Sequence record: NC_001901.1
Source of the DNA: Escherichia phage N15
Reading direction: 5' to 3' (one strand)
DNA: 46,375 nucleotides
Part shown: positions 10,060 through 46,319 of the stretch, one piece after another
How the letters are laid out: every line of letters starts with the position of its first letter
Numbering within the stretch: the stretch's first letter is position 1
The notes under the pieces: generated by a model
The model's input: the letters and a program-made list of their open reading frames with translations, nothing else
Database searches by the model: none
Told to the model about the DNA's origin: nothing
Program-made: the position numbers and the translations under genes

Positions 10060-10380
10060 ATGAAACTGGCGCGTGAGTTCGGTCGCCCGGACTGGCGTGC
10101 CATGCTTGCTGGCATGTCCTCAACGGAGTACGGCGACTGGAAAATCTTCTACCAGGACAATTATTTTCATGATGCGCAGCTGGATGCTCATTTCTCCGGT
10201 TTGCTCTACACCATCTCAACCCTGTTTTTTGCCGATCCGGAGTTAACCCCGGACAGTTTCAGCATTCTTTCCCCTGCACCGGAAGCCATCGACATCGATG
10301 ATCCGGATGACGATACGCTGATGGCGAAGGCTGCAGGTATTTCAGGAGGCGTGCGCTATGGCCCAGACGGCAGTCGGTGA
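10060..10380 (+). CDS. gpT-like region, probably expressed only as G-T fusion by -1 frameshift near 10027-10033
   Basis: ORF in -1 frame relative to G, open from 10015; lambda G/T programmed frameshift paradigm. Confidence 0.55.
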   Translation: MKLAREFGRPDWRAMLAGMSSTEYGDWKIFYQDNYFHDAQLDAHFSGLLYTISTLFFADPELTPDSFSILSPAPEAIDIDDPDDDTLMAKAAGISGGVRYGPDGSR

Positions 10381-12874
10381 CCTGGTCGTTAACCTTGACG
10401 TTAACTCGACAAAATTCAACGAGCAGCTCAGCTACGTTAAAAAAGAATTAAAGCAGACCGGCAATACGGCAAACGATGAAGCGTTACGTATCCAGCAGTC
10501 CTTCAGCCGCCAGGAGAACGCCGCGCGTAAGGCGGGTATTTCAGTGGGTCAGTATAACGCAGCGATGCGTATGCTCCCGGCGCAGTTTACTGACGTGGCC
10601 ACGCAGCTTGCGGGTGGGCAGAACCCCTGGCTGATTCTGCTTCAGCAGGGCGGTCAGGTTAAGGACTCCTTTGGCGGGATCATTCCGACATTCCGGGCGT
10701 TGCTGGGGACGATTTCCCCGTTGATGGTCGGCATTGGTGCATTGTCCGTTGCAACGGGCGCGTTGTTCTATGCCTGGTACCAGGGCTCTTCCACTCTGTC
10801 TGATTTCAACAAAACGCTGGTACTGTCGGGGAACACAGCCGGACTGACAGCTGACCGCATGCTGGCACTGGCGCGGAACGGACAGGCAGCGGGGCTAACG
10901 TTCAACCAGACCAGTGAAGCCCTGACCGAGCTTATCAATGCAGGTGTGCGTACTGGCTCGCGCTTTGATGAAATGAGCCAGGCGGTGGCGCGGTTTACTG
11001 ATGCCTCCGGCGTGCCGGTGGAGAAAGTCGCGGCAGCCTATGGCAAGCTCGCAACTGACCCGACATCGGGCCTGATCGCGATGGCCCAGCAGTTCCATAA
11101 CGTTACCGCTGAACAGATTGCCCATGTGGCGCAGCTGCAGCGTGCCGGTGATGAGGCTGGCGCACTGCAGGCGGCTAACGAGGCTGCAACAGCCGGATTC
11201 AACGACCAGACCAAAGCCATCCGCGACAATATGGGGACGATTGAATCTTCAGCGGACTCCCTGAAGCGCGCCTTCAAGTCGATGTGGGATGCGGCTCTGG
11301 ATATTGGGCGACCTGACACCGCGCAGGAGATGGTGGCAAAAGCCGAAGCTGCGTTCAAAAAAGCCGATGAAATCTGGAACCTGCGTAAAGGTGACCGATA
11401 TGTCAATGATGAGGCCCGCGCCCGATTCTGGAATGACCGCGAAACAGCCAGACTGGCGCTGGATATGGCGCAGCAGCAGGCGGGAATAGCCAGGGCGAAT
11501 GAAGAGAATGCATCGCGCGAAGCGGCTGCTGAATCGGATCGCCAGAAGTATGCTGCGCAGGCACAGGCAAACTATGCCAAAACGCAGACGGCACTGGAGA
11601 AATACACGGCCAGGCAGAGCGAGCTTAACAAGGCGCTGAAAGAGGGGCGGATCCTCCAGGCTGACTACAACATCAACCTGGCTGCCGCGAAAAAAGAGTA
11701 CGAAGACACCCTTAAAAAGCCGAAGAAGACCCCGGCAATCAGAACCCCCGCAGGTGCCCGTGCAACCGATACGGCCAGCGCCCAGACGCTGGAGCTGCAG
11801 GCACAGCTGCGCACCCTGCAGGAGCATAAGAGCATCAATGACACCATCAGCCAGCAGCGTCAGGAGCTGTGGCGTCAGCAGTCCCGCTTTACGGTTCTGG
11901 AAGAGGCCGCGAAGACCCGGACGCTTTCTGCTGAGGAAAAATCCCTGCTGGCCAGTAAAAGCGAGGTGCTTTCCCGTGCGGAGCTGAATGCGAAGCTCGG
12001 CGATCAGATAGTGGCTCAGGAGCGGCTTAATCGCCTGCAGGATACGTCTCAAAAATACGTCACGCAGATCGGCGAGAAAACCCGAGCCCTGGCGGAAAGT
12101 GCTGGTATGAGCAGTCGTGCAGCACAACGCCGCAATGAAGAGGCCCAGCTTCTTCAGGGCTGGAAAAATGGTGGCGGGTCTGAGAACGATGCCGGTTATC
12201 AGAATGAGCTACAGGCGCTGCAGGCGTATTACGCCGAGCAGGATAAGCTGCGGGACGACTGGCAATCCGGGGCCAAATCCGCATGGGCAGATTATGTTGA
12301 TTCTGCTTCAGATGCTTATGGCCAGATGAAGTCGTTTGCCACCAGTACGTTTGATGGCATCGGGCAAAATATGGCTGACATGCTGACGCGCGGAAAGGCT
12401 GACTGGGCTGACTTCACCCGCTCCACGCTCTCCATGCTGACACAGATCCTGCTGAAACAGGCGATGGTAGGCCTGGTGGATTCAGCGACAACCGCGCTGG
12501 GATTTGCAGGTGGCGGTTATACCGGTTCAGGCGGGAAATATGAACCTGCAGGTGTCGTTCACCGTGGTGAATTTGTTTTCACCAAAGAGGCTACAAACCG
12601 GATCGGCGTCGGCAATCTTTACCGGATGATGAAAGGGTATGCCACGGGTGGGTATGTCGGGGGCGGTGGTACAGGTCCAGCTGCAGCACCTTTCGGTGTC
12701 AGTGTATATGCCCCGGTGACGGTCGAAAATGCTTCCGGTAACGCACAGCAGCAAAACGACGGAGACAGGCTGGGTAAAGCGTATCAGCAGGTGATTAACA
12801 AATCTGTCAACGATGGCATCGCCAGGGCAATCCAGCCCGGTGGGCTTATCTGGAATGCGACCAATCGCAGGTAA
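10358..12874 (+). CDS. tail tape measure protein (lambda gpH-like)
   Basis: 838 aa, AGGAGG RBS, long coiled-coil-rich sequence, Gly-rich C-terminal part, synteny. Confidence 0.95.
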   Translation: MAQTAVGDLVVNLDVNSTKFNEQLSYVKKELKQTGNTANDEALRIQQSFSRQENAARKAGISVGQYNAAMRMLPAQFTDVATQLAGGQNPWLILLQQGGQVKDSFGGIIPTFRALLGTISPLMVGIGALSVATGALFYAWYQGSSTLSDFNKTLVLSGNTAGLTADRMLALARNGQAAGLTFNQTSEALTELINAGVRTGSRFDEMSQAVARFTDASGVPVEKVAAAYGKLATDPTSGLIAMAQQFHNVTAEQIAHVAQLQRAGDEAGALQAANEAATAGFNDQTKAIRDNMGTIESSADSLKRAFKSMWDAALDIGRPDTAQEMVAKAEAAFKKADEIWNLRKGDRYVNDEARARFWNDRETARLALDMAQQQAGIARANEENASREAAAESDRQKYAAQAQANYAKTQTALEKYTARQSELNKALKEGRILQADYNINLAAAKKEYEDTLKKPKKTPAIRTPAGARATDTASAQTLELQAQLRTLQEHKSINDTISQQRQELWRQQSRFTVLEEAAKTRTLSAEEKSLLASKSEVLSRAELNAKLGDQIVAQERLNRLQDTSQKYVTQIGEKTRALAESAGMSSRAAQRRNEEAQLLQGWKNGGGSENDAGYQNELQALQAYYAEQDKLRDDWQSGAKSAWADYVDSASDAYGQMKSFATSTFDGIGQNMADMLTRGKADWADFTRSTLSMLTQILLKQAMVGLVDSATTALGFAGGGYTGSGGKYEPAGVVHRGEFVFTKEATNRIGVGNLYRMMKGYATGGYVGGGGTGPAAAPFGVSVYAPVTVENASGNAQQQNDGDRLGKAYQQVINKSVNDGIARAIQPGGLIWNATNRR

Positions 12875-13980: not shown

Positions 13981-14712
13981 ATGCGCCAGAAAACCATTGA
14001 TGCCATCATGGCGCACGCCGCTGCGGAATATCCGCGCGAGTGCTGCGGCGTGGTAGCGCAGAAAAGCCGGGTTGAGCGCTATTTCCCCTGCCGCAACCTC
14101 TCAGCCGAGCCGACAGAGCATTTTCACCTTTCTCCTGAAGACTACGCAGCTGCCGAGGACTGGGGGACGGTGGTGGCCATTGTTCACAGCCACCCTGACG
14201 CCACGACACAGCCGAGCGAACTGGATAAAGCGCAATGTGATGCAACGCTGCTGCCCTGGCATATTGTGAGCTGGCCGGAGGGGGATTTACGCACTATTCA
14301 GCCGCGCGGGGAACTGCCGCTACTGGAGCGCCCGTTCGTGCTTGGCCACTTTGATTGCTGGGGGCTGGTCATGAGCTATTTCCGGCAGACCCACGGTATC
14401 GAACTCCATGATTACCGCGTCGACTATCCCTGGTGGGAGAACAGCTATCCGGACAACTTCTATCAGGACTGCTGGTACGAGTGCGGATTCAGGGAGTTTG
14501 ACGGCCCGCCTCAGGAAGGGGACCTCGTCATCATGCAGGTGCAGGCGGATAAGTGGAACCATGCCGGAATATTGCTGGAAGGTAACATGCTGCTGCACCA
14601 TCTTTACGGGCATCTGAGCCAGCGCGTGCCGTATGGTGGCTACTGGCAGGAGCGCACGATGAAAATCGTTCGATATAAAGATGTAAGGGGTAATGAAGCA
14701 TGCAGGAAGTGA
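13981..14712 (+). CDS. tail assembly protein (lambda gpK-like), JAMM/MPN + NlpC/P60-like
   Basis: HSHPDATTQPSELD JAMM-like motif and Cys/His motif FDCWGLV; ATG immediately after L stop. Confidence 0.85.
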   Translation: MRQKTIDAIMAHAAAEYPRECCGVVAQKSRVERYFPCRNLSAEPTEHFHLSPEDYAAAEDWGTVVAIVHSHPDATTQPSELDKAQCDATLLPWHIVSWPEGDLRTIQPRGELPLLERPFVLGHFDCWGLVMSYFRQTHGIELHDYRVDYPWWENSYPDNFYQDCWYECGFREFDGPPQEGDLVIMQVQADKWNHAGILLEGNMLLHHLYGHLSQRVPYGGYWQERTMKIVRYKDVRGNEACRK

Positions 14713-15290
14713 TGAGCCGTATTGAGCTTGGCGGTGTGCTCGGAAAAACGTTCGGCAAAGTTCATCATCGCCTGATTTCCCGCGTGAGCGAGGCGGGTGT
14801 TGCGCTGGCAAAGACGGTTCCGGGATTTGAGCAGTTTATGATCTCCAGCCAGCGCCGTGGGCTCACTTATTCCGTATTCAAAGGGAAAAAGAATATTGGT
14901 GTTGATGACCTTGGCTTCCCGGTCACCGGCGATGTTATCCGCATTGTTCCGGTCATTATCGGGAGTAAAAAAGCGGGTGTACTACAGACTATTTTAGGTG
15001 CGGTTCTGGTTGCTGTCGGTGTGGTTCTTAATTTCACGCCCTGGGCTGCGGCTTCACCATTCTTCTACAAACTTGGTGCCGCAGTCATGCTGGGCGGCGT
15101 TGTCCAGATGCTTTCCCCTCAACCAGCGGGTCTGGCCAGCAAACAAAGCTCTGATAACCGCGCCTCCTACGCGTTTGGCGGGGTCACAAATACCGCTGCG
15201 CAGGGCTACCCGGTACCACTTCTTTATGGTCGTCGGCGAATTGGCGGCGCGATTATTTCTGCCGGGATATATGTCGAAGATCAGCAGTAA
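14700..15290 (+). CDS. tail assembly protein (lambda gpI-like)
   Basis: 196 aa; hydrophobic Gly/Ala-rich middle and LLYGRRRIGG tail resemble lambda I. Confidence 0.8.
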   Translation: MQEVMSRIELGGVLGKTFGKVHHRLISRVSEAGVALAKTVPGFEQFMISSQRRGLTYSVFKGKKNIGVDDLGFPVTGDVIRIVPVIIGSKKAGVLQTILGAVLVAVGVVLNFTPWAAASPFFYKLGAAVMLGGVVQMLSPQPAGLASKQSSDNRASYAFGGVTNTAAQGYPVPLLYGRRRIGGAIISAGIYVEDQQ

Positions 15291-15341: not shown

Positions 15342-18300
15342 ATGGCTACATCTACTCCGATTAGAGGCCGCAAGGGCGGCAGCTCCAGTTCCCGCACCCC
15401 TACCGAACAACCAGACGATCTCCAGTCCGTAGCGAAGGCCAAGATTCTTGTTGCGCTGGGAGAGGGGGAATTTGCCGGGCAGCTAACGGCTAAAGATATT
15501 TATCTTGATGGCACACCACTTGAGAACGCTGATGGGTCGCAGAACTTTAGCGGCGTGGCGTGGGAGTTCCGTCCGGGGACTCAGGCTCAAAACTACATCC
15601 AGGGAATCCCCGGTACCGAGAATGAAATCAGCGTCGGTACCGAAGTTTCAAGCGCTACCGCCTGGACGCACACCTTTACCAATACCCAACTGTCAGCTGT
15701 TCGTCTGCGGCTCAAATGGCCATCGCTGTTTAAACAGGAGGACGACGGCGATCTGGTTGGCTATTCGATTAACTACGCTATTGATCTGCAGACCGATGGC
15801 GGCACCTGGCAGACGGTGCTTAATACCAGCGTAACCGGGAAAACAACATCCGGCTACGAGCGCAGCCACCGTATCGACTTACCACAGGCGGGAAGCACAT
15901 GGACGGTACGCATTCGCAAGCTCACGGCAGATGCCAATAGCGCGAAAATAGGCGACAAGATGACGCTGCAGAGCTACACAGAGGTCATTGACGCCAAACT
16001 GCGTTATCCAAATACCGCGCTGCTGTACATCGAATTCGACTCAAGCCAGTTTAACGGCTCTATCCCGCAAATATCCTGCGAACCGCGAGGGCGTGTTATC
16101 CGCGTACCGGATACTTACGACCCAGAAACCCGCACTTATAACGGCACCTGGCTGGGGACGTTTAAATGGGCATGGACTGATAATCCGGCCTGGATTTTTT
16201 ACGATCTGGTGGTGAGTGACCGCTTTGGCCTTGGCGACCGCCTGACGGCAGCAAATATTGATAAATGGACGCTTTACCAGGTTGCACAATATTGCGATCA
16301 GCCGGTACCAGACGGAAAAGGCGGTTCCGGCACCGAGCCTCGCTATACCTGTAACGTGTATGTGCAGGAGAGGAATGACGCTTATACCGTTTTGCGTGAT
16401 TTTGCGGCCATATTCCGTGGCATGACGTACTGGGGCGGCGATCAAATCGTTGCGCTGGCTGATATGCCCCGCGATGTGGATTACAGCTATACGCGCGCTA
16501 ATGTGGTTGACGGCCGTTTTACCTATTCAGGCAGCACCACGAAAACCCGCTACACCACGGCACTGGTTTCCTGGTCCGATCCGGGCAACGCCTATGCAGA
16601 CGCGATGGAGCCTGTATTTGAACAGGAACTCGTGTCCCGCTTTGGTTCAAACCAGCTCGAAATGACAGCTATTGGTTGTACCCGACAGTCAGAGGCAAAC
16701 CGTAAGGGGCGCTGGGGTATCCTGACCAATAATAAGGATCGCGTCGTATCGTTCAATGTCGGTCTGGACGGCAACATTCCACAGCCCGGTTATATTATTG
16801 CGGTTGCCGATGAGCTGCTATCCGGGAAGGTGATGGGAGGGCGTATCAGAGCGGTTAATGGTCGCGTCATTACTCTAGATCGTGATTCTGCAGCAGCAGC
16901 CGGAAGCCGCCTCATGGTTAACCTGCCGTCTGGCGCATCGCAGAGCAGGACGATACAGAGCGTAAACGGTCGGGCGGTCACCGTGACCACGGCATACAGC
17001 GAAACGCCGGAAGTAGAATCGGTGTGGATTGTCGAATCCGACGAGCTTTATGCGCAGCAATATCGCGTTATTAGCGTCGCTGATAATAATGATGGAACGT
17101 TTTCGATTTCGGGTGTTTTTCACGATCCGGATAAGTATGCCCGTATTGATACCGGCGCAATCATCGACCAGCGACCAATAAGCGTTATTCCTCCAGGTAA
17201 CCAGTCTGCGCCAGCCAATATTGTGATCAGCTCGTTTTCGGTGGTTCAGCAGAATGTCAGCGTTGAGACCATGCGCGTCAGCTGGGACCAGGCGAAAAAC
17301 GCAATTGCCTATGAGGCACAGTGGCGTCGTAATGACGGGAACTGGGTGAATGTGCCGCGCAGCTCCACCACATCCTTCGATGTTCCGGGCATTTACGCAG
17401 GACGCTATCTGGTTCGTGTGCGTGCCATAAATGCCGCCGAAATTTCGTCCGGATGGGGCTATTCAGAAGAGAAAACGCTGACGGGGAAAGTGGGCAATCC
17501 GCCAAAGCCTGTTGGATTCACGGCCACGGGCATTAACTGGGGGATTCGTCTGAACTGGGGGTTTCCGGCAAACACCGGCGATACGTTAAAAACGGAAATC
17601 CAGTACACAGCTAATAGCGACTTTTCAGATCCTTTGCTGCTTACCGACGTCCCATATCCCTCATCTGAATATATCCAGCTTGGACTGAAGGCTGGGCAAG
17701 AGTTCTGGTACCGCGCGCAGCTGGTCGACAGAACGGGTAACGAGTCCGGGTATACCGACTGGATAAGGGGGATGTCTAACGATAATGCCGATGATTATCT
17801 TGGCGATCTTGCAGACGACTTTATGAAGGCGGAGGACGGGGAGCGTCTTACCGGTGATATAGATACCAATATTGAGGGAATACTGCAGAACGCGCTGGCC
17901 AATCATGGAACAGTCGAGCATCAATGGGCGCAATACGGAGAAGTTCGTGCCGATATTCTTGTAGTCAAAACGACTATTGCTGAAGTTGACAGGGCAATGG
18001 CCGAAATGTCAACTCAGGTGCAGGCGCAGATAAGCGACGTCACTGCGGCACTGGAGGACAAACTTACCGCCGTGGTCGATGCCTCCGGCGCTTCGGCGAT
18101 CTACACCCTTAAAGCAGGCGTGAGGATAAACGGCATCATGTATAACGCAGGGATGTCGATTGCCGTTCTGGCGCAGGCAGGGCAGCCGATTGTTACCCGC
18201 GTAGGTTTCAACGCTAACCAGTTCGTGCTGATGAGTGGCAGTGGTGATACCCAGTATTCGCCGTTCGCGGTGGTTAATGGCCAGGTCTTTATCAGCTCTG

Positions 18301-18527
18301 CGTTTATCCAGGATGGCACGATCACGAATGCCAAAATCGGTAATTTTATCCAGTCCAACAATTATGTCGCCGGGCAGTCCGGGTGGAAACTGGATAAAGG
18401 AGGTACCTGGGAAAACTACGGCAGCGACGGGGAGGGCGCAAGAAAGACTACGAATGTAACGGACAGCATCAGGGACGCGAACGGCGTTCTCCGCGTACAG
18501 ATTGGTAAAATTACGGGGGTATTTTGA
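15342..18527 (+). CDS. central tail fibre / host specificity protein (lambda gpJ-like)
   Basis: 1061 aa; gpJ family N-terminal region and internal fibronectin-III-like segment; synteny. Confidence 0.95.
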   Translation: MATSTPIRGRKGGSSSSRTPTEQPDDLQSVAKAKILVALGEGEFAGQLTAKDIYLDGTPLENADGSQNFSGVAWEFRPGTQAQNYIQGIPGTENEISVGTEVSSATAWTHTFTNTQLSAVRLRLKWPSLFKQEDDGDLVGYSINYAIDLQTDGGTWQTVLNTSVTGKTTSGYERSHRIDLPQAGSTWTVRIRKLTADANSAKIGDKMTLQSYTEVIDAKLRYPNTALLYIEFDSSQFNGSIPQISCEPRGRVIRVPDTYDPETRTYNGTWLGTFKWAWTDNPAWIFYDLVVSDRFGLGDRLTAANIDKWTLYQVAQYCDQPVPDGKGGSGTEPRYTCNVYVQERNDAYTVLRDFAAIFRGMTYWGGDQIVALADMPRDVDYSYTRANVVDGRFTYSGSTTKTRYTTALVSWSDPGNAYADAMEPVFEQELVSRFGSNQLEMTAIGCTRQSEANRKGRWGILTNNKDRVVSFNVGLDGNIPQPGYIIAVADELLSGKVMGGRIRAVNGRVITLDRDSAAAAGSRLMVNLPSGASQSRTIQSVNGRAVTVTTAYSETPEVESVWIVESDELYAQQYRVISVADNNDGTFSISGVFHDPDKYARIDTGAIIDQRPISVIPPGNQSAPANIVISSFSVVQQNVSVETMRVSWDQAKNAIAYEAQWRRNDGNWVNVPRSSTTSFDVPGIYAGRYLVRVRAINAAEISSGWGYSEEKTLTGKVGNPPKPVGFTATGINWGIRLNWGFPANTGDTLKTEIQYTANSDFSDPLLLTDVPYPSSEYIQLGLKAGQEFWYRAQLVDRTGNESGYTDWIRGMSNDNADDYLGDLADDFMKAEDGERLTGDIDTNIEGILQNALANHGTVEHQWAQYGEVRADILVVKTTIAEVDRAMAEMSTQVQAQISDVTAALEDKLTAVVDASGASAIYTLKAGVRINGIMYNAGMSIAVLAQAGQPIVTRVGFNANQFVLMSGSGDTQYSPFAVVNGQVFISSAFIQDGTITNAKIGNFIQSNNYVAGQSGWKLDKGGTWENYGSDGEGARKTTNVTDSIRDANGVLRVQIGKITGVF

Positions 18528-44233: not shown

Positions 44234-44565
44234 TGAAAGTTTATATCGCCGGGCCAATGACAGGCCGTGAAAATTATAACCGTGCCGCTTTCAATAAAGA
44301 GGCAGACCGCCTTACCCGCCACGGTCACACAGTTCTGAACCCAGCCAGCCTTCCTGATGGTCTGGAACAGCGCGAATACATGGATATCTGTTTTGCGATG
44401 CTCCGCTGCGCTGATGCAATCATGATGCTGCCAGGCTGGCAAGCGTCGTCCGGTGCGACAGCCGAATATCACTACGCGTACAAAATGGAATTGCCAGTCT
44501 ATACGGTTCTGCATTATCCACCTGTAGCGCTTGAGAAGGAAATTGATGAGCGCCTTTTACAATGA
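44233..44565 (+). CDS. DUF4406-like / nucleoside 2-deoxyribosyltransferase-like protein
   Basis: N-terminal MKVYIAGPMTG motif; ATG overlaps previous stop. Confidence 0.55.
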   Translation: MKVYIAGPMTGRENYNRAAFNKEADRLTRHGHTVLNPASLPDGLEQREYMDICFAMLRCADAIMMLPGWQASSGATAEYHYAYKMELPVYTVLHYPPVALEKEIDERLLQ

Positions 44566-45541
44566 ATTTGAAAGATATCCCGCAACATGGCTAAGCAACC
44601 TGATCGCGAACGGTTCAATAGCAAACGGCATTGTTGATGAGCGCTCTATTGTTGATGTTGCTCCGTCAGATGTTATCAATAAAACGCAATGCCACTGGTT
44701 TGCTGGGATTGGAGTTTGGAGTTATGCGTTGCGTTTAGCTGGCTGGCCAGATAGCCGTTCTGTATGGACAGCCAGCCTGCCATGCCAGCCGTGGAGCTCT
44801 GCAGGAAAGGGAGGAAAATTTGATGACGAACGACACCTCTGGCCTGTGTTTTTCAGACTCGTTAAAGAGTGCCGCCCTCCAGTCATTTTTGGTGAGCAGG
44901 TTTCAAGCAAGGACGGCCTTGAGTGGTTCTCAGCTGTACAAACTGACCTGGAAAATGCGGGCTATGCCGTTGCAGCGCTTGATACATGCGCAGCGAGCGT
45001 CGGTGCTCCGCACATCAGACAAAGAATCTTCTGGATGGCCTACGACTACAGCCAGCAATACCAAAACGGCGATAAAGGATGTAGTGAAAATACTGGCCAG
45101 AAGAGCAGCGGGACGACAGTCGAACTTGCAGGATGTAGCAGTTCTTGCCGGATGGAATACACCGACAGCATCAGACTGCAAAGGAGGGTATCAGGGAGGG
45201 AGGATACGAAACGGGAAATTATCGACCGACCGCCTGGATGTAACATCGCAGTTGGCGGGATGGTCACCCGAAACGCTCCCGTCACTGAATTCAAACCAGA
45301 AAATCACAGCGCCCTGGGGGCCGTGCAGACTGACTCATACTGGAGAGATATTGACTGGCTCTTCTGCCAGGATGGAAAGTGGAGGCCAGTTGAACCCTCA
45401 TCATTCCCGCTGGCTGATGGGATTGCCGGTCGAGTGGGCCAGTTGCGCGCCTACGGGAACGCGATAGTCGCTCCATTAGCGGCAGCATTCATCACCTCGG
45501 CTTATCAGGCAATCCAGGACTTCGAATCCCAAAAAAAATAA
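44546..45541 (+). CDS. DNA C5-cytosine methyltransferase-like protein
   Basis: FAGIGV (motif I-like), [11 protein letters not shown] (PCQ motif IV), FGEQV (ENV-like), QRIFWMAY (VIII), YGNAIV (X); RBS GAAGGAAA. Confidence 0.6.
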
Positions 45542-45560
45542 CATTTAGTGTTCCGCTTTC

Positions 45561-45578
45561 GTGCGACCACGGTCGCAC
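45561..45578. repeat. centromere-like palindrome GTGCGACCACGGTCGCAC
   Basis: Third copy of GTGCGACC-NN-GGTCGCAC. Confidence 0.7.
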
Positions 45579-45695
45579 GCTTTTCCATTCTCATAGACAT
45601 GAGCGTTGCTGCGTAACGGGTTCATTGCCCAATCTGCGTCGCGTATAGCGCTCATGTTTATGAGAGTTGCCTCAACACATCTAAAAGGATCTATC

Positions 45696-46319
45696 ATGTC
45701 AGAATCTGTAAGCATCAGTCATGTAGCAACGATGTCTAAACCGTTTGGTGTAAACGTCGAATGGAAATGGCCAAATGGCAGCAGCTGGTTTTCCAAGTTG
45801 GAACTGCAATGCCTCCGCGAAGACGGGCGGCTAGTGAAAGAGTGCATATATTATCCGAATACTAGCCATCTTATTTCCGGTCTTAAATGTGGTGAGCGCG
45901 TGCAGGTACGGGTGCGCATCGTTGCAGTGAACGGTTCTACCCGAGACTGGCAGGTTAGTGACTGGATTCAAGGCGAATCATCTGTTGATGCTGGCGATAT
46001 CGTCCAGTGGTTGGAAGACGAAATCCGGAACAGCGAGACGTTTAAAGTATTTCGCGGCCAGTGCTTTATTAACGAAGGAAAGATTGGCAATGGCATCGTT
46101 TCTACGAACTATAACGTGAAGTTGAACATGAGCGACACTGCCAAGCAGCATGGATGTGGATTGTTCGTTGGTATCGATGTGCAGAAGGGCAAGGCGTCAG
46201 GGGCTGAAGGGAAAACATCTGAGCTTAAAAAAGAGATCGACGAATGGATTACAGAGACGATCCATCTGCATTGCCGCCCAGGTGGCATTATCTGGCAGGC
46301 TACAAGGCGCAATCGATAA
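45696..46319 (+). CDS. hypothetical protein with FN3-like segment and tape-measure-like C-terminal motif
   Basis: RBS AAAGGA before ATG 45696; C-terminus PGGIIWQATRRNR resembles tape measure C-terminus PGGLIWNATNRR. Confidence 0.5.
   Translation: MSESVSISHVATMSKPFGVNVEWKWPNGSSWFSKLELQCLREDGRLVKECIYYPNTSHLISGLKCGERVQVRVRIVAVNGSTRDWQVSDWIQGESSVDAGDIVQWLEDEIRNSETFKVFRGQCFINEGKIGNGIVSTNYNVKLNMSDTAKQHGCGLFVGIDVQKGKASGAEGKTSELKKEIDEWITETIHLHCRPGGIIWQATRRNR

Follow-up and report, generated by a model that had tools for sequence, protein, structure and literature searches.

Gene 59 of phage N15 encodes a mosaic of central-fiber and tape measure modules and may act at tail-tip assembly

Gene 59 and the architecture of its product

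The final gene ahead of cos in Escherichia phage N15 (NC_001901.1) specifies a small protein, gp59, in which a segment related to the central tail fiber J is joined to a C-terminal end resembling that of the tape measure protein. The window analyzed here is the complete genome of N15, a linear plasmid-prophage of 46,375 bp, whose gene order runs through lambda-like head and tail genes, sopBA, and open reading frames (ORFs) of protelomerase and RepA size. Gene 59 occupies 45696..46319 on the + strand, with its stop codon at 46317-46319, and lies on the same strand as the late genes. Its 207-amino-acid product is 100% identical to the database entry "gp59 [Escherichia phage N15]", and the ORF is as described in the original prediction from the DNA sequence (ATG 45696, 207 residues). 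Direct reading of the sequence reveals a Shine-Dalgarno element, AAGGA (45685..45689, + strand), 6 nt 5' of this ATG. An upstream TTG at 45606 was considered as an alternative start and rejected, because all homologs begin at the equivalent of the MSE... specified from ATG 45696. A comparison with the closest diverged relative gives a dN/dS of 0.40, which indicates that the gene is under purifying selection, if not of a very strict kind.

The N-terminal part of gp59 is an FN3 domain (residues ~10-95; 45723..45980, + strand), which BLASTP, AlphaFold and Foldseek together identify as a probable copy of the second FNIII domain of J. It is followed by a short helix and β-hairpins (residues ~99-143; 45990..46124, + strand), apparently a stub of the J shaft and β-prism fiber corresponding to the Phage_Tail_Tip/DUF1983 region, and the protein closes with a tape-measure-type module (residues ~170-207; 46203..46316, + strand) made up of a helix, R-P-G-G, I-I-W and a basic end (...CRPGGIIWQATRRNR). 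An AlphaFold model of the monomer, built on the family alignment, predicts a confident β-sandwich at residues 10-95 (pLDDT 80-91), a middle third of low confidence, and a C-terminal helix (170-193) that breaks at P-G-G and is succeeded by a short helix (198-205). The N15 protein is a shortened member of its family: alignments show that it is without 25 residues of its nearest relative and ~60 of the common 260-275-residue forms, and the deleted stretch of ~25-60 residues falls just after the J-fiber stub.

The J-like segment

The J protein of N15 (gp21; 15342-18527, 1061 aa) is recovered by BLASTP with two parts of gp59. Residues 17-136 match J 733-854, a region encompassing FNIII-2 and the start of the shaft (17538..17903, + strand), at E=1e-7, and residues 117-139 match J 981-1008 at E=0.03. 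The former region is the paralogous source of the gp59 N-terminal half. The predicted β-sandwich retrieves FN3 domains from the PDB in Foldseek searches (E~1e-4, target TM up to 0.76), in accord with the resemblance to the FN3-like segment of J proposed earlier; the Pfam fn3 model scores gp59 at 18.4 bits, under its 25-bit gathering cut-off. The fiber stub also matches PHROG 29765 (1e-10) and PHROG 31, and a profile of the family matches the solved J-type fibers 9l9p, 25vf and 23gd. PF09327 (Phage_Tail_Tip/DUF1983) finds most family members, with no match to the N15 protein at E<=10.

In lambda, J is ordered as hub domains, FNIII-1, FNIII-2, an α-helical shaft, a β-prism fiber and a receptor-binding domain (PMC11101478). 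Set against this order, the alignments make gp59 an FNIII-2 domain plus a short helical stretch and part of the prism, with a tape measure tail in place of the receptor-binding domain. Unlike the central fibers of lambda and N15, it has neither hub domains nor a receptor-binding end, is about one-fifth the size of J and is encoded outside the J locus. The N15 J protein itself ends 21 residues past its Pfam Phage_Tail_Tip domain (903-1040 of 1061) and therefore has no separate C-terminal receptor-binding domain of the lambda kind; the end of phi80 J is almost identical (...VLRVQVGRLTGVF).

The C-terminal tail is homologous to the ends of tape measure proteins

The N15 tape measure (gp16; 10358-12874, 838 aa) carries the Pfam domains TMP_2 and Tape_meas_lam_C and ends ...IQPGGLIWNATNRR. 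The counterpart of the gp59 tail in this protein is its C-terminal module, residues 810-838 (12785..12874, + strand), as defined by BLASTP and by reciprocal hidden Markov models (HMMs). In BLASTP, gp59 178-205 pairs with tape measure 810-837, the two C-termini being in register and 10 of the 28 residues identical (E=0.002). This alignment, which had been suggested as a check on the original prediction, upholds the resemblance that was read from the DNA, although the tape measure motif then placed at 12830-12874 starts at 12836.

One HMM took in the final 40 residues of 43 family proteins and was run over 2,367 reading-frame segments of nine phage sequences. Tape measures were recovered from N15 (E=4.9e-9), from an Enterobacter prophage (4.5e-7), from HK639 (3.2e-6) and from MStein (5.4e-5); family members and tape measures aside, these segments gave no significant match. 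In the converse direction, with 62 tape measure tails as the sole input to the model, N15 gp59 scores E=3.4e-4 and another five of its family score 1.5e-7 to 1.5e-4; apart from tape measures and these six gp59-family proteins, no match falls below 0.02. By the measure of these sequence profiles, the likeness of the two tails is true homology, beyond chance.

Nearly all 72 homologs of gp59 end in ...A(I/L)(R/K)xAL(K/Q)PGG followed by two hydrophobic residues, an aromatic one and a few basic ones. The motif recurs in 43 distinct tails, and the family positions P195, G196 and G197 are each at least 90% conserved. Independent tape measures of the lambda family (those of lambda, phi80, HK639, N15 and relatives) share the same plan, helix-(P/D)GG-hydrophobic-aromatic-basic, with endings of the N15 type (RPGGLIWNATNRR), the phi80 type (SPGGLLYSRG), the lambda type (RDGGLFSGGGR), the AsXd-1 type (RPGTPLWNAIKGSR) and the HK639 type (KPGGMIYNFSKGR). 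The C-terminal similarity is thus conserved in related phages, both throughout the family and across the lambda-family tape measures, and the refuting condition set with the original prediction, a lack of such conservation, does not hold. At the DNA level the two N15 tails show 54% nucleotide identity, and half of their common residues are specified by different codons. For these reasons the likeness is one held at the protein level, with no recent DNA exchange, and recent gene conversion between the two 3' ends was rejected as its origin.

Structures of the lambda virion place the equivalent end of gpH in the lumen of the tail tip, where a three-helix coiled coil of residues 818-842 rests on the gpI tripod (residues ~135-223) (PMC10721106, PMC12617516, PMC11101478); the gpH model reaches residue 849 of 853 (PMC10721106). 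As gpH ends ...ARDEIQTQMRDGGLFSGGGR, the resolved piece bound to gpI is the very helix-plus-GG-hydrophobic-aromatic segment that it has in common with gp59. Like the ends of lambda gpH (818-853), N15 gp16 and phi80 gp15, that of gp59 combines an extreme C-terminal helix, (P/D)-G-G, two hydrophobic residues, an aromatic residue and a basic end, but in gp59 the module sits on a J-derived body of 170 residues rather than on a tape measure of 800. By analogy with the lambda structures, the docking partner of both N15 tails would be the product of gene 20 (14700..15290, + strand), the lambda gpI homolog; the corresponding phi80 protein is annotated "similar to lambda I, N15 gp20". Among carriers of the tail module, binding to gpI has been seen for lambda gpH alone. 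Because the common segment is the part of gpH (818-849 of 853) that is docked on gpI, the original suggestion that gp59 may use the same docking interaction as the tape measure is a well-founded one.

A family with a constant tail and exchangeable fronts

Over its residues 1-205, practically its full length, gp59 matches PHROG 13555, whose function is unknown, at E=7e-102. Its 72 homologs have E-values down to 1e-131, and a search of 1.84 billion representative proteins returned 325 clusters at E<=1e-3, full-length J proteins included, of which about 100 are small stand-alone proteins with intact ORFs. A scan of genome contigs for the family yielded 2 loci only and added nothing. The homologs phi80 orf66 (PHI80_66, "ORF x171.28; similar to N15 gp59"), HK639 gp13 and SP016_00205 of FSL SP-016 share with gp59 the fiber segment and the C-terminal tail, occupy the same gene slots, are annotated as hypothetical and fall in PHROGs 13555, 17079 and 29765. 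In comparison with them, the N15 protein has an N-terminal module of the FN3 type, is shorter and has no detectable Pfam Phage_Tail_Tip domain.

The constant part of the family is its C-terminal ~70 residues, in front of which stands one of at least four unrelated and interchangeable kinds of module: FN3, MK.LSLQQAMLGMRV, the phi80 type LSGAA.DVLYALFFRGAL, and M..TY.I.EVTVTIP. The alternative N-terminal modules have no Pfam domain and no recognizable enzyme or effector, and the notion that they are enzyme or effector cargo was rejected on the former ground. There are also two kinds of tail within the family. Two N15-like plasmids with P27/HK97-type packaging genes and HK97-type heads have, in the slot corresponding to gene 59 (L101, 32851-33699; L102, 1969-2592), proteins with a different tail, ...AIQLAKAVKAAFNELNTEDATAN. 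This second tail type recurs on the family representative P0230. A prediction that the tape measures of these two plasmids would end like the variant tail failed, as they keep the G-G motif.

Members of the family are found in two gene positions. In the first, the interval between the lysis and terminase genes, they occur in N15, Ravinvirus MStein-2023a, phi80, FSL SP-016, AsXd-1 and Fraca. In the second, with the major tail gene on one side and the genes for the G/T chaperone and tape measure on the other, they occur in HK639 and ~30 Enterobacter prophages. As regards the layout of a moron, an independent cassette of promoter, gene and terminator, the HK639 gene (HK639_13, for gp13) is bracketed by annotated terminators, and N15 gene 59 has a terminator-like hairpin upstream. 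A crude consensus scan detected no sigma-70-like promoter upstream of the family gene in either N15 or HK639. Across N15-like plasmids, the same slot is filled by a member with another front module, by a member with an unrelated tail, or by an unrelated ORF resembling a tail protein. The last situation is exemplified by the Enterobacter cloacae plasmid p53EVA-1, in which the slot contains an unrelated 344-aa ORF (L097, 2986-4020) that matches the "tail protein" PHROGs 5939 and 1419—another stand-alone fragment of a tail protein at the same hotspot. These positions, the shuffling of modules and the gene's presence or absence in close relatives look like the marks of an accessory or conflict gene, not of a core virion gene.

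We also compared the aromatic residue of the small protein (W versus Y/F) with that of the resident tape measure. The two agree in N15, MStein, AsXd-1 and prophages of the HK639 type. A claim of co-evolution between the small protein and its resident tape measure was nonetheless rejected, the pattern being inconsistent and the independent lineages too few. From the sequences, then, the family tail is a shared module, but one not in every case matched to the tape measure of the same phage.

Further observations concern the neighborhoods of individual members. In the HK97-like phages FSL SP-016, AsXd-1 and Fraca and in a Salmonella prophage, the gp59-like gene is followed by a conserved ~485-aa ORF resembling glycosyltransferases (L093, 33505-34962; L094, 1878-3335; L006, 3002-4459; L103, 4330-5826), which matches PHROG 1579 and, below the cut-off, the Pfam GT2 model; this suggests a two-gene cassette in these phages. 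The member from the Aeromonas phage AsXd-1 (L094, 3591-4484) is nearly identical in its C-terminal half to HK639 gp13 and to the Enterobacter prophage proteins, a link across hosts that could reflect either recent exchange or a mis-assigned host.

Gene 59 is already known as a gene for a hypothetical protein, and its FN3 and J likeness is implicit in database labels, where family members are often called "DUF1983 domain-containing" or "phage tail tip fiber protein". In the literature that we searched, gp59, orf66 and the small DUF1983 proteins appear in annotation notes only, and there is no description of the family or of its tape-measure-type tail. The homology of this tail to the gpI-docking end of tape measures and the modular architecture of the family, along with the upstream hairpin treated below, appear to be undescribed there.

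Links to tail-assembly inhibition in phi80 and Pseudomonas phages

The original prediction had left gene 59 unconnected to described biology. A connection is offered by the domains of J and the tape measure/gpI interface and by the phi80 branch of the family. The final gene of phi80 before cos, PHI80_66 (orf66), has a 140-residue match to gp59 (E=4e-7) and terminates in ...ECFPGGVIWQQCRR. It stands two genes from taiEcA (orf63) and atiEcA (orf64), respectively a tail-assembly-inhibition defense and the antidote to it (He et al. 2024, PMC11364771). Tai genes usually reside in a hotspot upstream of the packaging genes, and mutations that escape Tai map to the C-terminal part of J (PMC11364771), a region copied by gp59-family proteins. 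With orf62-orf66 deleted, phi80 is viable and forms plaques (PMC11364771). The deletion primer stops inside the ...MMECFPGGVIW codons, which leaves hardly any of orf66; this published phi80 deletion, made in that phage and not in N15, establishes that orf66 is not a required structural part. Within the region, only the deletion of orf64 (atiEcA) was reported to lower the phi80 titer (PMC11364771).

Thus, the gp59 family and the Tai/Ati pair share the hotspot upstream of the packaging genes, and phi80 orf66 is a close neighbor of that pair. They differ in that gp59 is dissimilar in sequence to the Tai/Ati proteins and is co-oriented with the late operon, while taiEcA has a divergent orientation and is active in the lysogen; the late orientation of gene 59 and its lack of a sigma-70 consensus argue against Tai-like expression from the prophage. 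For orf66, moreover, no reported phenotype is on record. No homology of gp59 to TaiEcA, AtiEcA or the phi80 orf65 product was found. N15 is without a homolog of the phi80 Tai/Ati pair (L095, 3366-4191) despite the common orf66/gp59 gene and a very similar J C-terminus, and it might be a Tai-sensitive phage. A second blocker, Tab of the Pseudomonas phage JBD26, has as its target the C-terminal part of the tape measure (Patel et al. 2024, PMC10884400). The Tab/anti-Tab system differs from gp59 in belonging to a Mu-like group of Pseudomonas phages and in that Tab is expressed from the prophage.

Functional interpretation

Gene 59 encodes a J/tape measure mosaic with a tail conserved family-wide, belongs to a family seated in accessory hotspots, is co-oriented with the late genes and under purifying selection, and has a dispensable homolog in phi80. 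The best explanation is that it is a real, selected, non-essential accessory gene of the N15 late operon. As to what it does, we favor, with a rough probability of 0.4, the proposal that gp59, expressed late and non-essential, is a trimer mimicking parts of the tail tip and exerts its effect when the tip is assembled, by competing or by serving as a decoy. The fiber-derived part would make the protein a trimer, which would display three tape-measure-like ends, and these would engage, or imitate engaging, the gpI/J/L initiator complex while the tail tip is being built. The protein would thus be no required building block but a participant in phage-versus-phage or phage-versus-defense conflict. 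We favor such a role because of the hotspot location, the shuffling of modules, the patchy presence in close relatives, the relaxed selection and the dispensability of the phi80 homolog, and also because the two regions copied are the targets of known blockers, J in the case of Tai and the tape measure in that of Tab. The direction of the effect is a matter of speculation: gp59 might poison the tails of rivals or soak up Tai- or Tab-like inhibitors.

Several points weigh against this proposal. The first is self-interference: gp59 is made together with the phage's own tail genes, and its tail is most like that of its own tape measure, such that it should block its own assembly, and no gene for an antidote to this is evident. 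The late-strand orientation without a promoter is a further difficulty, with the proviso that the promoter scan was a crude consensus test. The agreement in aromatic residue fails in phi80 (W versus Y), and the SP-016 tape measure is without the motif altogether. In the two N15-like plasmids mentioned above (L101 and L102), the tail has been swapped for an unrelated one while the tape measures retain the motif. Nor does phi80 orf66 give protection from TaiEcA, the deletion of atiEcA alone sensitizing the phage. In BLASTP gp59 has no match to phi80 orf63, and in tblastn searches orf63, orf64 and orf65 have none in the N15 genome at E<=1. Likewise, gp59 matches no PADLOC defense model or NCBIfam model. 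The trimerization and gpI binding that we infer draw on the lambda structures and on a monomer model with a low-confidence middle third. Finally, N15 gp59, being shortened, could be partly decayed.

A wider form of the favored proposal is tentative and rather doubtful: that the gp59 family is an as yet unrecognized class of tail-assembly conflict proteins working by structural mimicry, which would jam the initiators of rivals or act as decoys for inhibitors of the Tai/Tab type, with the N-terminal modules setting specificity. In a variant of it, the tail would load exchangeable heads into the lumen for delivery to the host.

The best surviving alternative, though an unlikely one, is that gp59 is a virion-borne or injected accessory protein, docked by its tail on gpI and riding in the lumen, with its variable N-terminal module reaching the cell envelope ahead of the DNA. 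The homology of the tail to the gpI-docking end of tape measures speaks for it, as do the late co-orientation, the location of the gene within the tail operon in many prophages, and a constant C-terminus behind a variable N-terminus, which fits a constant anchor with a variable head. Further, in several lineages the tail resembles, at the protein level, that of the phage's own tape measure, and work on Ur-lambda found six copies of the tape measure but only three C-termini on gpI (PMC12617516), so that the stoichiometry of the tip is not fully settled. Yet the lambda gpI tripod has a single three-helix site, already filled by the tape measure, and three chains of FN3 plus fiber would have to fit into a lumen that the tape measure occupies. 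The phi80 deletion that takes out orf66 is viable, the N-terminal modules are without enzyme or effector domains, and so variable a presence in close relatives is unusual for a virion part. In the literature searched, no proteomic study of virions turned up for a carrier of the gene.

A distinctly improbable alternative is that the tail is a generic, foldon-like trimerization cap with no specific partner, making gp59 either a free fiber-like trimer whose N-terminal module does the work or the decaying remnant of a recombination between tail genes. In favor of this, the lambda segment is a three-helix coiled coil in its own right, the family tail is replaceable and at times differs from that of the resident tape measure, and N15 gp59 has lost internal segments. 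The residues most conserved in both classes of protein are, on the other hand, those after the helix (P-G-G, two hydrophobics, the aromatic and the basic end), which in lambda extend past the coiled coil onto gpI (818-842 being the helix and the model running to 849). Decay, moreover, sits poorly with intact ORFs in ~100 clusters and with purifying selection.

Still lower in our estimation stands a role as an assembly helper or placeholder, in which a trimeric surrogate of the tape measure end would cap the J/I/L/K initiator, or nucleate the trimerization of J, and then be displaced, raising the yield of tail tips without being essential. It would account for the late orientation, for the location beside chaperone and tape measure genes in many prophages, for the copying of both the trimerizing fiber segment of J and the docking end of the tape measure, and for dispensability in phi80. 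But lambda and many of its relatives build tails without any such protein; the fast swapping of modules, the alternative tails and the unrelated replacements are atypical of assembly chaperones; and a dN/dS of 0.4 is high for a morphogenetic gene.

The hairpin upstream of gene 59

The DNA preceding gene 59 contains a centromere (SopB-type) palindrome (45560..45579, no strand assigned) with a terminator-like hairpin score and a T-rich run after it. It is one of four copies of GTGCGACCACGGTCGCAC, with 0-1 mismatch, in the right half of the genome (33479-33496, 35930-35947, 41124-41141 and 45561-45578), which we take to be the Sop centromere from the known biology of N15 and from sopA/ParB annotations in related plasmids. 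On the 5' side of this site, the window has an ORF resembling cytosine methyltransferases (44531-45541, TTG start). This ORF is missing from the equivalent place in Ravinvirus MStein-2023a and several Enterobacter plasmids, where a DUF4406 gene adjoins the centromere block.

Just downstream of the last centromere copy are the two palindromes reported originally, CTCATAGACATGAG (45590-45603) and CTCATGTTTATGAGAG... (45651-45664), 61 bp apart and the sole exact CTCAT-N4-ATGAG sites in the genome. A repeat finder places them in a single 17-nt inverted repeat whose arms (45589-45605 and 45649-45665; TCTCATAGACATGAGCG / CGCTCATGTTTATGAGA) are 94% complementary, and RNA folding predicts a single long hairpin for 45586-45668 (z=-6.9). 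The palindromes thus constitute the outer stem of a conserved extended hairpin of ~80 nt (45586..45668, + strand). It lies beside the last centromere copy only, the other three having no such neighbor. In MStein-2023a the same fold is present, and its arms are perfectly complementary through a U-to-C change that turns a G.U into a G-C pair.

The block of centromere palindrome and hairpin is 96-99% identical in nine N15-like elements while its flanks differ. Across five diverged copies, the 33 predicted pairs show zero double compensatory changes, and at the seven variable pairs G.U pairing on the + strand is mostly retained (in 10 cells, against 2 in which it is broken), which is suggestive, not proof, of an RNA structure in the rightward transcript. 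No T/U-run follows the long hairpin, and the best Rfam match is at chance level (E=0.45). No copies occur in 5,426 Escherichia coli genomes, and among plasmids they are confined to N15-like ones, at the same position. Accordingly, an RNA family, an intrinsic terminator, an operator containing a promoter and a dispersed mobile repeat were each rejected as identities of the hairpin, given no Rfam match, U-run, sigma-70 consensus or other copies. It was likewise rejected as an element dedicated to gene 59, being kept before the unrelated gene of p53EVA-1 (L097) and missing beside family members elsewhere. We assign the hairpin to the centromere block and not to gene 59 as an operator of its own.

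The reading of the sites as paired operator-like palindromes is weakened accordingly, and we rate as the least probable of the alternatives that they form an operator pair for a dimeric DNA-binding regulator of gene 59: they are the only exact copies in the genome, 61 bp apart just 5' of the gene, and conserved in related elements, but similarity past the palindromes is only inverted (the 17-nt arms) with complementary rather than identical spacers, the stretch folds as one hairpin in whose natural variants G.U pairs on the + strand persist, the block and the centromere are conserved together even before an unrelated gene, the block is absent 5' of family members elsewhere, and there is no promoter-like site between the palindromes.

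Implications

The interface between the C-terminus of the tape measure and gpI has been seen only recently, in the lambda structures, and the Tai and Tab defenses block this same stage of assembly. Should the gp59 family have no measurable effect, it would still be a clean case of the shuffling of modules between tail genes. If the short, portable sequence of helix, P-G-G, hydrophobic pair, aromatic residue and basic end does suffice for targeting to the tail tip, as it may, it would be useful in phage engineering. A widespread and unstudied family of small proteins that combines a copy of the docking end with pieces of fiber gives a handle on how phages and their rivals may manipulate the assembly of the tail tip.

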